DNA of 64,000 nt from Nitrospirota bacterium (GTDB lineage: Bacteria; Nitrospirota; UBA9217), in assembly GCA_963751455.1 (NCBI GenBank), contig CAVVUN010000002.1, forward strand, positions 480,001 to 544,000, given 5' to 3'. Below the pieces are notes generated by a model. The model was not told the DNA's origin, did not search any database, and was given only the letters and a program-made list of their open reading frames with translations. The position numbers and the translations under genes are program-made. This document shows, piece after piece, positions 44,186-48,336 of the stretch; position 1 is the stretch's first letter, and each line of letters begins with the position of its first letter.

Positions 44186-44299
44186 GTAGCACTATAACAT
44201 GAGAAAGGGTGGTTTGCAATGAGAACGAATTGACGGTAGTGTCTCAGTTTGAAAATATTCCCCGTTGAGCTAAAGCCAAAATCATGCTATTATGGATTC

Positions 44300-44530
44300 A
44301 TGCCAAAAGGACCGCAAGGACAAAAGAGGCCCGCTGATGTGATCGGGAACGCTATTAAGATCGCCAAGATCGCTACGGGCGAGATTGAAGAAAAGACCGA
44401 TGGGAAAGAGTACGCCCGTAAAGGTGGCCTTATAGGTGGCAAAGCTAGAGCGGATAAATTGACACCCGCCCGACGAAAGGCAATAGCCAAGAAAGCCGCA
44501 AAAACCCGCTGGGAAAAGCCTCGACCGTAA
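44300..44530 (+). CDS. Small basic KGG-like protein of the IS element
   Basis: MPKGPQGQKRPADVIGNA...KGGLIGGKARA...AAKTRW; promoter TTGAGC-17-TATTAT ends 6 nt before the ATG. Confidence 0.8.
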   Translation: MPKGPQGQKRPADVIGNAIKIAKIATGEIEEKTDGKEYARKGGLIGGKARADKLTPARRKAIAKKAAKTRWEKPRP

Positions 44531-44695
44531 CCCCTTGACCCATTGATAAAATTGCATTAATACTTTAGTACTGCCAACTATTCCTCTCCTGTATTGCCTA
44601 TATCGGGGCAATAAATCTACAGGGTCAATGAAAAGTATTGACTCTCTCCTCAATATCTGCTATAAATAATCATCCTAAAGGAAGGGGGTTAGCCT

Positions 44696-45127
44696 ATGCC
44701 TCGGATGGATACAATAGATCGAACGAAGGCCAATTTTAATTTTTCAGAGATGAAGCAAAAACTTCAGTCTCAGCTTGCACAGTATCAACAGGCTGTCGAG
44801 GAAGTGAAGAGGGAATTGGATGCGCTGGCCATCATAGAAGGGTCCAAATATCTCGCAATCGAGTCAAGAACAGACCGGTCTCGATCACAGACAAGTTTAT
44901 TCAGCAAGTCTTCTCTAAAAGATAGAATGATTGCCACAGTCAATACCATGCCAGAAAAATTTACACGCATGGAGTTTTTCGAGTGCGTAAAAAAAACAGG
45001 AGAAGCTAACGACGGATCATTGAGCGTATATTTCCCTCAGCTGAAAGCTGAAGGGTATATTATGGTTCTTGAAGAACCACACGGGCATCAACCTGGCTAT
45101 TACACTAAGGGCAATAGGCACGAGTAG
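44696..45127 (+). CDS. Hypothetical protein, coiled coil plus possible winged helix (IS cargo)
   Basis: RBS AAGGGGG; promoter TTGACT-17-TATAAA; N-terminal heptads. Confidence 0.65.
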   Translation: MPRMDTIDRTKANFNFSEMKQKLQSQLAQYQQAVEEVKRELDALAIIEGSKYLAIESRTDRSRSQTSLFSKSSLKDRMIATVNTMPEKFTRMEFFECVKKTGEANDGSLSVYFPQLKAEGYIMVLEEPHGHQPGYYTKGNRHE

Positions 45128-45155
45128 CAAGTTTTTGAGTTGGGAGGTGATGTGA

Positions 45156-45212
45156 ATGAGAAGAAGATCTAGCGCCATAGTGGACGGCGTGGACATAAAT
45201 AGACAGAAATAG
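45156..45212 (+). CDS. Putative 18-aa leader peptide MRRRSSAIVDGVDINRQK
   Basis: RBS GGAGGTGA; ATG AGA AGA AGA; stop codon inside a 13-bp stem. Confidence 0.45.
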   Translation: MRRRSSAIVDGVDINRQK

Positions 45213-45274
45213 CGTGAGCTTTTAAGCCTGACCAGCCGAAACTCACGCTATTTCCCACTCCCTGATACATATAT

Positions 45275-45347
45275 GCCCCTGTAGTTCAACGGATAGAACA
45301 CGCGTCCACTAAACGCACTATCCCGGGTTCGAATCCCGGCAGGGGCT
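45275..45347 (+). tRNA. tRNA-like gene with anticodon ACT (atypical, no encoded CCA)
   Basis: Acceptor GCCCCTG/CAGGGGC, D arm GTTC-AACGGATA-GAAC, anticodon arm CGCGT-CCACTAA-ACGCA, T arm CCGGG-TTCGAAT-CCCGG. Confidence 0.8.
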
Positions 45348-45360
45348 CTTTTGTTGTTTA

Positions 45361-45388
45361 ATTATAAACCAATTGGCTTAAATGTCAA
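45361..45388 (-). promoter_or_regulatory. Consensus sigma70 promoter antisense to the tRNA-like gene
   Basis: Minus strand TTGACA-16 bp-TATAAT. Confidence 0.6.
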
Positions 45389-45411
45389 TTGTAAATTATA
45401 GGAGTACAACT

Positions 45412-45744
45412 ATGAGCGATACGGGTACAGCTACTTGGTTAACTTACACCTTCACGGTTTATCCCCATGCAGGTACATCATGGAACAGTGTTGCGGGAAT
45501 TTACATTTTGACAGGTGTAAATCGACAGAATCAGTGGGAACCTTTGTATATTGGGCAATGCGACAGTTTTCTAAGCAGAATTCCATCGCACGAGAGATGG
45601 GATGAGGCACAGGCTCTAGGGGCGCGCCATATACATGCGCTGGTGGTGTCGAAGCAGGAAGATCGTGACATAATTGAGAAGGCTTTGATTCGTGCATATC
45701 AGCCACCTCTAAACGATCTATTGAAAAAGTATCTTTCACTTTAA
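45412..45744 (+). CDS. Stand-alone GIY-YIG nuclease-like protein (IS cargo)
   Basis: AGIYIL...LYIGQ, SRIPSH, IEKALI...PPLN; RBS AGGAG. Confidence 0.8.
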   Translation: MSDTGTATWLTYTFTVYPHAGTSWNSVAGIYILTGVNRQNQWEPLYIGQCDSFLSRIPSHERWDEAQALGARHIHALVVSKQEDRDIIEKALIRAYQPPLNDLLKKYLSL

Positions 45745-45766
45745 TACCTCCACAATAGGTTCAACC

Positions 45767-45810
45767 TGGGGTTTTGCGCAATCCATCCGTGCAAGGCCCC
45801 TTTTCTTTTC
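45767..45810 (+). terminator. Intrinsic terminator after the GIY-YIG gene
   Basis: GGGGTTTTGCGC...GTGCAAGGCCCC followed by TTTTCTTTTC. Confidence 0.6.
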
Positions 45811-45819
45811 TTGAGTACT

Positions 45820-45848
45820 ATTATAGGTGAACGATCGTTCACTGTCAA
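45820..45848 (-). promoter_or_regulatory. Consensus sigma70 promoter with a 16-bp palindrome, antisense to the GIY-YIG gene
   Basis: Minus strand TTGACA-GTGAACGATCGTTCACC-TATAAT. Confidence 0.7.
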
Positions 45849-45876
45849 GGGTATTATTTTAAACTGAAAATAATGC

Positions 45877-45905
45877 TTGACACTCAAGCATAAAGTTCAT
45901 ATAAT
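45877..45905 (+). promoter_or_regulatory. Transposase promoter (likely leaderless mRNA) with an inverted repeat over the -35
   Basis: TTGACA-17-TATAAT-6 nt-ATG; TGCTTGA-CAC-TCAAGCA. Confidence 0.7.
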
Positions 45906-45911
45906 AAGAAC

Positions 45912-46742
45912 ATGAACAAACTACCTATCAATAAACGAGTCCAAATACTAAACATGCTTTGCGAAGGAAGCTCAATGCGATCTATCTCGCGGATCGCAGA
46001 CGTTTCGATCAACACCGTTACGAAGCTGCTTGTTGATGCAGGGACGGCATGTAACGAGTACCATAATCAGAACGTAAAGGAACTTACCGTTAAGCGCGTC
46101 CAGGCCGACGAGATTTGGAGTTTTTGTTACTCGAAAGAAAAGAACGTTCCCGAGGAAAAGCAGGGTATATTTGGTTACGGTGATGTATGGACGTTTACGG
46201 CCATTGATGCGGATTCAAAGCTGATCGTATCCTGGCACGTAGGCAGTAGGGATATGGAGAACGCGACCATGTTCATGAAGGACGTAGCATCAAGGCTTAA
46301 AAGCCGCGTCCAGTTAACCACAGACGGCCATAAAATGTATTTGGAAGCTGTAGAGAGTGCTTTCGGTTCTGATATTGACTTTGCGCAGCTTGTGAAGATA
46401 TATAGGAGTGTGCCGAGTAGTGCTGAAACGCGGTATAGTCCTGCCAAATATGTCGGGGCTGAAAAAACAAAGATCACCGGCAACCCTGACAGGAAGGAAG
46501 TATCTACTTCCCATGTTGAACGTCAAAACCTTAACATGCGTATGGGGATGCGCAGATTTACCCGGTTGACGAACGCATTCTCAAAGAAACTGGAAAATCA
46601 CTATCACGCGCTTTCGCTCTATTTCATGTTCTATAACTTCGTAAGGATTCACAAAACCTTGAGTGTTACACCTGCAATGGCAGCTAACTTAACCGATAGG
46701 CTTTGGACTATGGAAGATATAGTTGCTTTGATAGAGAAATAA
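45912..46742 (+). CDS. IS1-family DDE transposase
   Basis: N-terminal [34 protein letters not shown]. Confidence 0.92.
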
Positions 46743-46829
46743 AGCAGAGGCCGGATTTTTTTTATTTTCCCCTTGACAGTAAGTACTTACTTACATTATA
46801 CTATAGGTGGATATAGGAAAGGAGTGCTT

Positions 46830-46982
46830 ATGCCAGAACAAAACAAGGATGGGAAAATATTAACAACGTATGATTTTACTTTAATGACGTGGAAAGCCGT
46901 TCGTTATCTCCGGTTTTCGATAGCCTTGATTATATCGCTTCTAATTGCGATTGGGTCAATACTGGCATTCAAAGCTTTTTGA
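46830..46982 (+). CDS. 50-aa single-TM protein overlapping the antisense Zn-ribbon gene
   Basis: Promoter TTGACA-18-TATACT (46773-46802), RBS AAGGAG, hydrophobic C-terminus. Confidence 0.5.
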   Translation: MPEQNKDGKILTTYDFTLMTWKAVRYLRFSIALIISLLIAIGSILAFKAF

Positions 46983-47101
46983 CAGCTAGGGCAGGAGTAA
47001 ATAACCGTTTTCCATTCTTGCCCCATAAATGCGGACGAATTAACCGAGTCTAAATTTAATCTGAATAAAGGTTGATTACAATGTGGACAGTTAGCAGCCA
47101 T
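46904..47101 (-). CDS. 65-aa zinc-ribbon protein (IS cargo)
   Basis: CPHC...CPSC; RBS AAGGGGG. Confidence 0.65.
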   Translation of the reverse strand: MAANCPHCNQPLFRLNLDSVNSSAFMGQEWKTVIYSCPSCQKALNASIDPIAIRSDIIKAIENRR

Positions 47102-47477
47102 AGTTCCCCCTTTTATTCTATGAGATTGATAGGGCATCATATCATTTTTAGTAAAAATAAGGGGATTTTTTATAAAGGATTGAAACTGAGACACTACCGA
47201 ATTGACGGTTATGATGGAACCATGCCGGCCATGGACAGCTTCAAGCGGTATATCAACGCTATGGCATTCCACAGAGCGTCTATTTGGACAGGCACTCAAC
47301 GTATAAATCCACGGCCAAGCAGAGCATCGAGTATGAGTTGTTTATGTCTCTCCAATTACGCATTATGAAAAAAGCAATAAAAGCCGAAAAATAAACAGCA
47401 ACAATTGCCGAGAGAACCTGTAAATATTCTGCTACAATATGTCCGAGTGAAAAAAGCGGCATCTGCGATTACCTCTC

Positions 47478-47957: not shown

Positions 47958-48080
47958 TCCTTGCTCTTGAAAAGCACTACCAGACTACCCTTATAATCGA
48001 TTTGACCCACATCTATTCCAGCCCCAAAGCACGGCCTGTCTAACCCTGACATTTTGCCGATCATAAGGTATAGAATATTT

Positions 48081-48247
48081 GTAACTACTCAGGTCATTTT
48101 TTTATCCGCAGATTACGCAGATTTCGCAGATAAAAACAAAACCAGAATTCCGGTTTTAGAATCTGCGAAATCTGCGAAATCTGCGGATAGAAGGGCTTTT
48201 TCTTAGATTTGTCTTAATGCTGTTCTGAAAAGAAGCTGAATAGTTAC
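48081..48247. mobile_element. 167-bp MITE (GTAAC family)
   Basis: TIR GTAACTACTCAG / CTGAATAGTTAC; 8-bp TSD GAATATTT; internal CGCAGATT repeats forming a palindrome. Confidence 0.85.
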
Positions 48248-48336
48248 GAATATTTAAGTATCAAAAACTTTTGATTTTTGATCCTTGACAGAGTTATAAT
48301 TTACGTCCTCTTTCCGTAGCCATAGGTAGGTATTCC

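Follow-up and report, generated by a model that had tools for sequence, protein, structure and literature searches.

An IS1-Family Transposon with a tRNA Gene among Its Cargo

The window, by which we mean the whole stretch of 64,000 nucleotides of Nitrospirota DNA that was analyzed, contains a 2,964-bp IS1-family cargo transposon (44235-47198), inside which lies a tRNA gene with the anticodon ACU (Table 1). The original prediction called this gene transposon-borne, and the 19-bp inverted ends, the 8-bp direct repeat on both flanks, and an IS1 transposase scoring above the PF03400 cut-off (26.6 bits vs. 24.1) bear this out. The transposase also matches NF033558 with an E value of 2.6e-18, yet falls below that model's cut-off, and its homologs carry the name IS1 family transposase. 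The element is intact, its target duplication is exact, and the genome contains it once. A sister element of that genome (L024, in the locus labels used here) has the same ends and an 89% identical transposase, with other cargo and no tRNA.

Table 1. Features of the tRNA-carrying transposon and its flanks (window positions)
Feature	Position	Strand	Basis or remark
8-bp target-site duplication, left copy	44227..44234	.	direct repeat
Left terminal inverted repeat, 19 bp	44235..44253	+	repeat search; sister element L024 has the same ends
Small basic ORF, 76 aa, left end	44300..44530	+	no family match
Passenger ORF, 143 aa, weak winged-helix signal	44696..45127	+	
Mini-ORF, 18 codons, Met then three AGA codons	45156..45212	+	strong Shine-Dalgarno
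16-bp hairpin, 20 nt 5' of the tRNA	45206..45254	+	inverted repeat
tRNA gene, Arg-type body (A20, C35, U36), anticodon ACU	45275..45347	+	sequence, ARAGORN, Rfam
Perfect sigma-70-type consensus, antisense across the tRNA	45361..45388	-	consensus match only
Passenger ORF, 110 aa, GIY-YIG-like, lying between tRNA and transposase	45412..45744	+	
Perfect sigma-70-type consensus before the transposase	45877..45905	+	divergent twin at 45848-45820
Single-ORF IS1-family DDE transposase, 276 aa	45912..46742	+	PF03400
Small zinc-ribbon passenger ORF, 65 aa	46904..47101	-	
Right terminal inverted repeat, 19 bp	47180..47198	-	repeat search
8-bp target-site duplication, right copy	47199..47206	.	direct repeat

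The small basic ORF at the left end is common to many elements of this IS group (a cluster of 11 loci, and also L024), and the GIY-YIG-like ORF had no homolog in the other fetched loci. A search of the passengers for defense systems gave no match beyond a partial one to PDC-S14 on the GIY-YIG motif. We take ISMhu11 to be the subgroup name for these single-ORF IS1 elements with passengers; a literature search found no paper on ISMhu11 or on tRNA cargo in IS1 single-ORF elements. To the right of the element, nested inverted repeats with 32-nt arms, 94% complementary, occupy an intergenic stretch (48074-48254).

An Arginine-Like tRNA Body with an Anticodon for a Serine Codon

ARAGORN calls the gene tRNA-Ser(act) at 45275-45348, and Rfam RF00005 matches 45275-45347 over model positions 1-71 of 71 with 56.6 bits (gathering threshold 29; E value 1.6e-9), the weakest RF00005 score among the eight tRNAs in the window. 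The sequence shows the cloverleaf described in the original prediction, namely an ACT anticodon with C33, a C27·A43 mismatch (flagged as nonstandard in the RF00005 alignment), A20, a variable loop of 5 nt with the long arm absent, U73 as discriminator, and no encoded CCA; an A·C pair at 15-48 had been overlooked. The tRNA is 73 nt long, with a 7-bp acceptor stem and a 5-bp T stem (a 7/5 layout), G18-G19-A20 in the D-loop, and the anticodon loop C32 C33 A34 C35 U36 A37 A38. Its folding z-score is -4.35, with 0 of 200 shuffles equally stable, and the lowest-energy fold opens the D stem. A sequencing artefact at A34 was considered and is unlikely, because the nearest relative, L155, shows the same stem and anticodon.

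The host already has a full tRNA set, including Ser(GCT) and Arg ACG, CCG, TCG, TCT, and CCT genes with encoded CCA, so the transposon gene is an extra one. Among host genes, Arg(TCT) and Arg(CCT) match it best, at 47/73 each, and L155, from another organism, reaches 57. The host Ser tRNAs measure 86-90 nt; the host genome also has two tRNA-Sec calls that differ from each other, and its Arg genes include both ACG and TCG.

Bacterial ArgRS reads A20, C35, and U/G36 (PMC9976931), and the window tRNA has the A20 and C35/U36 features of a bacterial tRNA-Arg, which upholds the earlier view of an Arg-like body; A20, C35, U36, and C3-G70 are among the bacterial Arg determinants in Table 1 of that paper, as is U73. 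The anticodon is not one for an Arg codon, since ACU pairs with AGU (Ser). On these features the tRNA would work like a tRNA-Arg at charging, and we do not file it as one. The host genome encodes one full ArgRS, TadA, and three nucleotidyltransferase genes of PF01743; the N-terminal motif of ArgRS forms the A20 pocket.

That the tRNA is charged with serine and simply helps to read AGU is very improbable. The AGT codons of linked transposases do align with Ser-type columns, including an invariant Ser, as such a helper would predict, but the tRNA has neither G73 nor the long variable arm that SerRS needs (PMC7609411), and A20 is invariant in the copies at IS elements. A possible precedent, the plasmid-borne tRNA-Ser(GCU) of Nostoc PCC 7120, is 90 nt long and has the long arm.

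Predicted Charging and Decoding

The reading that we favor, with a probability of roughly 45%, is that host ArgRS charges the window tRNA, that A34 stays unmodified, and that AGU would be read as Arg at a low rate. The tRNA would be transcribed together with the upstream passenger and mini-ORF, trimmed, and given its CCA, and then arginylated via A20/C35/U36; with A34 left unmodified it would read AGU, and AGG at most in traces. Competition with host tRNA-Ser(GCU) would then yield partial Ser-to-Arg substitution and no change of the code, at a rate probably lowered in this copy by C33 and A15·C48. In E. coli, an engineered ACU tRNA with a body different from that of the window tRNA escaped deamination and decoded AGU at 9.4% and AGG at 0.36%, with AGC and AGA below detection (PMC11066159); the branch of the original prediction in which A34 becomes inosine and AGU, AGC, and AGA are all read is therefore unlikely.

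A Mobile Family of Short-Arm ACU tRNAs

Searching for short-arm tRNAs with ACT required (position 20 left free as A, G, or T in the GTDB pattern), we found 21 viral loci and 81 loci in GTDB genomes from many phyla. All GTDB loci but the truncated L182 were scored, and 70 of these 80 have A20. They fall into 30 IS-linked loci (19 with an IS1-type transposase match, 9 with an IS1595 match, and 2 with shared passengers), 12 tRNA arrays or SPFH neighbors, and 38 others. A20 is kept in 30/30 IS-linked copies, the acceptor stem is perfect in 27/30 as against 15/38 other loci (p=1.7e-5), and A/G73 is found in 26/30 as against 21/38 (p=0.008), the discriminators of the other 38 loci being mixed. CCA is encoded in 13 of the 30 IS-linked copies.

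The original prediction had proposed looking for stem covariation in homologs from related IS elements. The stems of the family covary: in an alignment of 29 copies, both partners vary at 19 of 21 pairs and pairing holds in 96.7% of cells, a signal that is partly generic because ACT was required, the copies were hand-picked for intact stems, and they may descend from several ordinary Arg tRNAs. For this last reason the alignment is evidence of intact folding, not of single descent. Judged by these sequence comparisons, the short-arm ACU tRNAs are a genuine family, both conserved and mobile. Where A20 bodies in IMG/VR combine A34 with a base other than G at 36, the anticodon is ACT in 25/37 matches (15/25 distinct), ACA in 1, and ACC in 0. 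ACT is the A34 choice that retains both Arg anticodon determinants, and its lead is inflated because one change from three Arg anticodons reaches ACT and from only one reaches ACA. Short-arm GCT is also common in viral contigs (35 matches vs. 44 for ACT, with false matches in both). About 20 non-tRNA matches of a loose pattern were dropped.

These patterns bear on a rival explanation that we consider somewhat unlikely, in which the RNA is not used in translation and serves as a decoy for anticodon nucleases or tRNA-sensing defense, or as a processing or regulatory signal before the transposase, the off-code anticodon barring it from normal decoding. Of the IS-linked copies, 13/30 have a broken 27-43 pair, so that the break is a family trait, and most transposon-tied allo-tRNA(UAU) genes were inactive in E. 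coli translation (PMC5389517), both of which would suit such a role. Yet copies at IS elements preserve A20, the acceptor stem, and A/G73, the features that charging needs, and the anticodon is strongly biased to RCT.

Several neighborhoods recur around ACT genes in the wider set. At L110, L115, L117, L135, L139, L140, L142, L154, L159, and L180, ACT tRNA-like genes lie 140-670 nt before an SPFH/band-7 gene (neighbor clustering included 11 SPFH loci); most of these have 3-4 acceptor pairs, several stand directly 5' of NCCA, many are in long tRNA arrays, and they are mostly without A20. In lambdoid prophages (L003, L012, L014, and L123), an ACT tRNA with a frayed acceptor lies 3' of the NinG gene, upstream in three loci of an ORF that we take to be holin-like. 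In L162, L166, L168, and L171 the region immediately 5' of the ACT tRNA promoter has an HTH gene on the opposite strand, joined in L162, L168, and L171 by a Gp49/RelE-like gene. L108, L129, L136, and L156 share a structured stretch of ~110 nt that lies between tRNA and transposase and ends in an antisense promoter consensus.

Nearest Relatives and the tRNA Slot before the Transposase

The nearest relative, L155, has the same acceptor stem, gene order, and ACT anticodon, and L219, which was found without using the tRNA, has the same acceptor stem and the anticodon GCT. Both tRNAs also lie upstream of an IS1 transposase, and their anticodons are ACU and GCU, not the UCU or CCU of a simple tRNA-Arg pseudogene. 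The earlier suggestion of a decaying tRNA-Arg is therefore wrong for the family, whose nearest members keep ACT or GCT, although this copy carries rare deviations: C33 is found in 2/30 IS-linked copies, A15·C48 in 0/30, and U73 in 2/30. This copy thus looks attenuated by its sequence.

It is a further step to suppose that the family is functional and this copy a dead or dying relic, which we regard as unlikely. The co-occurrence of the three rare deviations fits a relic, as do the lowest Rfam score in the window and the lack of any tRNA in the sister element and in two close relatives. However, no mismatch breaks the acceptor, D, or T stem, and one T-stem pair is flipped relative to L155; C33 recurs in 7/80 scored family members; non-U33 bases are described as a brake that lowers the activity of a natural mistranslating tRNA (PMC11415595); and the element itself is intact, down to its target duplication.

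Other searches for relatives of the window tRNA gave little. BLAST of a 291-nt region returned no plasmid match and three weak phage tRNA-Asp matches, 100 related genomes gave one weak 63-nt match outside the tRNA, and the window's variable-loop pattern with a free anticodon had 0 viral matches. Its five metagenome matches were other tRNA-Arg genes (4 TCT, 1 CCG) and are not counted as homologs, because their acceptor stems differ and an IS1 transposase is absent. A one-mismatch scan of 401 genomes matched ordinary Arg tRNAs and was uninformative.

A sample of 89 IS1 loci drawn without regard to tRNAs has six with tRNA-like genes 170-375 nt 5' of the transposase: two are Arg-type and carry ACT or GCT, and the remaining four are mostly odd. 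Among 80 IS1595 loci sampled in the same blind way there were one Arg-type ACT gene, one Arg-type ACC gene, and several Leu-type genes with TTA or TGG. Identity-mismatched tRNAs thus turn up repeatedly in this slot, and the variety of odd tRNAs there suggests that shape may outweigh codon, which again speaks for the decoy or signal. So does an antisense promoter consensus 3' of the tRNA in 11/25 IS1-linked loci, although it is common in tRNA-less elements too (17/73; p=0.07).

Occupants of these elements include Leu-type long-arm tRNAs with a TTA (ochre) anticodon at IS1/IS1595 elements (L264:2776-2859, L323:4611-4696, L362:4632-4714, and L177), accompanied in L177, L323, and L362 by an Arg-type ACT or ACC tRNA; Leu-type bodies with TGG near IS1595 transposases (L313 and L325); A20 bodies that have G33 and a Pro-like anticodon loop and lie 5' of IS1 transposases (L441:2407-2481 and L252:2679-2753); and Ser-type long-arm tRNAs with the anticodon TAT in the same slot of IS1 elements (L453:2337-2429 and L454:2450-2547).

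A mini-ORF with a strong Shine-Dalgarno occupies the same place in the window, L155, and L219, and in all three its AGC codon falls at position 6-7, where a hairpin starts, with a second hairpin before the tRNA (45156-45254 in the window, 2654-2780 in L219). In CreT-type RNA toxins, a strong start is followed by a conserved run of rare Arg codons and then by a hairpin. The tRNA might accordingly be a spare decoder of Arg AGA/AGG, through I34 or loose A34 pairing, and possibly the antidote to an AGA-rich mini-ORF in a CreT-like pair. A Shine-Dalgarno, an ATG, and consecutive AGA codons do lie 120-140 nt upstream in the window and L155 and in 0/66 tRNA-less loci, linked transposases show a mild excess of AGG (p=0.009), and the host has TadA. 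We nevertheless hold this to be improbable: the L219 mini-ORF is without AGA codons and its GCU anticodon cannot read AGR, the engineered ACU tRNA cited above was neither deaminated nor able to read AGA, and the host already has Arg(TCT) and Arg(CCT) genes.

Codon Use in the Linked Transposases

If the window tRNA is arginylated and reads AGU, its targets should be sought among AGU-containing messages. A private code in which AGU means Arg was rejected: AGT falls in columns that are Ser-type or variable when 15 IS1 and 8 IS1595 transposase ORFs, as well as 11 SPFH proteins, are aligned, the mean Arg share of the columns at 49 AGT codons in linked genes is 0.02, and 11 small basic ORFs held one AGT in total. 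AGU is the rarest Ser codon of the host (7.8%) and AGT makes up 8/23 Ser codons in the window transposase, which points, weakly, to the element's own transposase as the message most likely to be affected.

For the codon comparison, short, stop-holding, and duplicate transposases were dropped, leaving 95 from IS1 and 83 from IS1595 elements. In 14 ACT-linked IS1 transposases AGT accounts for 0.205 of the Ser codons, vs. 0.066 in 76 tRNA-less ones, which are mostly viral (p=1.6e-4). AGT shows the largest shift among 59 codons after GC3 correction, and this shift holds in two GC3 bands and is absent in neighboring ORFs (p=0.68) and in out-of-frame triplets. Furthermore, AGT in linked transposases stands at highly conserved Ser columns in 5/48 cases vs. 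20/50 for AGC (p=0.001); the same avoidance appears in tRNA-less transposases (AGT 21/87, AGC 157/412; p=0.014), and comparing the linked with the tRNA-less set gives p=0.07.

The excess is not significant in six independent tree pairs (p about 0.25; quick tree), in cellular elements only (0.229 in 14 vs. 0.180 in 10, the latter set excluding L229, L453, and L454; p=0.32), or in four same-genome pairs (21/81 vs. 11/68; p=0.17), and none was seen in IS1595 transposases (9 vs. 74; p=0.12). The three closest tRNA-less relatives of the window transposase are equally AGT-rich (5/22, 7/20, and 9/26), the short-arm ACT pattern found no such tRNA in the genomes of two AGT-rich tRNA-less relatives, and the two IS1 elements with UAU tRNAs are AGT-rich as well. 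Lineage may account for much of the AGT signal, and control of the transposase in cis by the tRNA is therefore a lead, not a result.

A wider proposal, which we think unlikely, sees in the cargo of IS1 transposons a mistranslation module made of RNA alone: a tRNA-Arg with a swapped anticodon, charged by the host, that would rewrite AGU as arginine. Such a module might set the yield of active transposase from an AGU-rich message, or might harm AGU-rich invaders while sparing an AGU-poor host. The antisense promoter and the non-U33 variants would act as its brakes, and the Leu-type TTA/TGG and Ser-type UAU tRNAs of the slot would be parallel versions.

Significance and Comparison with Known Systems

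A review describes A34 as universally missing in the Ser-Arg split box (PMC8007984); against this, the mobile DNA of many phyla repeatedly carries intact ACU tRNA genes. Gene finders file these genes under tRNA-Ser, so the family stays hidden, and our literature search, which took in few subscription papers and no supplements, found no description of Arg-type ACU/GCU tRNAs on transposons. If charged, these tRNAs would be natural mistranslators, putting Arg for Ser with no help from a partner enzyme and spreading with their transposons; the tRNA pool would thereby be tied to the control of transposons or to genetic conflict.

The window tRNA shares with bacterial tRNA-Arg (PMC9976931, Table 1) the 7/5 cloverleaf, the short variable loop, A20, C35, U36, and C3-G70, and differs in its ACU anticodon for a Ser codon, in C33 and U73, and in having no G2-C71; it is carried by a transposon and is no recent copy of a host gene. 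It resembles tRNAProX and the allo-tRNAs in mode but lacks the features that define them. Like the tRNAProX of Streptomyces (tRNAProA/N/T; PMC11415595), it combines one amino acid's identity with another's anticodon and has A34 and a non-U33 base, making it a natural mis-sense candidate. However, tRNAProX is described as having a Pro-identity body and a co-encoded ProRSx, whereas the window tRNA has an Arg-type body, its family rides IS elements across many phyla, and no partner synthetase was found among the 45 largest neighbor clusters, the host having one ArgRS. The allo-tRNAs (Mukai et al. 2017, PMC5389517; PMC7609411) are likewise identity-mismatched and found near transposon-related and toxin-antitoxin genes, and the Ser-type UAU tRNA genes recall them from the same slot of two related IS1 elements; but allo-tRNAs have 8/4 or 9/3 stems, long arms, and Ser or Ala identity, whereas the window tRNA is 7/5, short-armed, and Arg-type. 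Finally, the element agrees with single-ORF IS1 elements with passengers in its DDE transposase, short inverted repeats, 8-bp duplication, and exchangeable cargo, and differs from them in that its cargo includes a tRNA gene.
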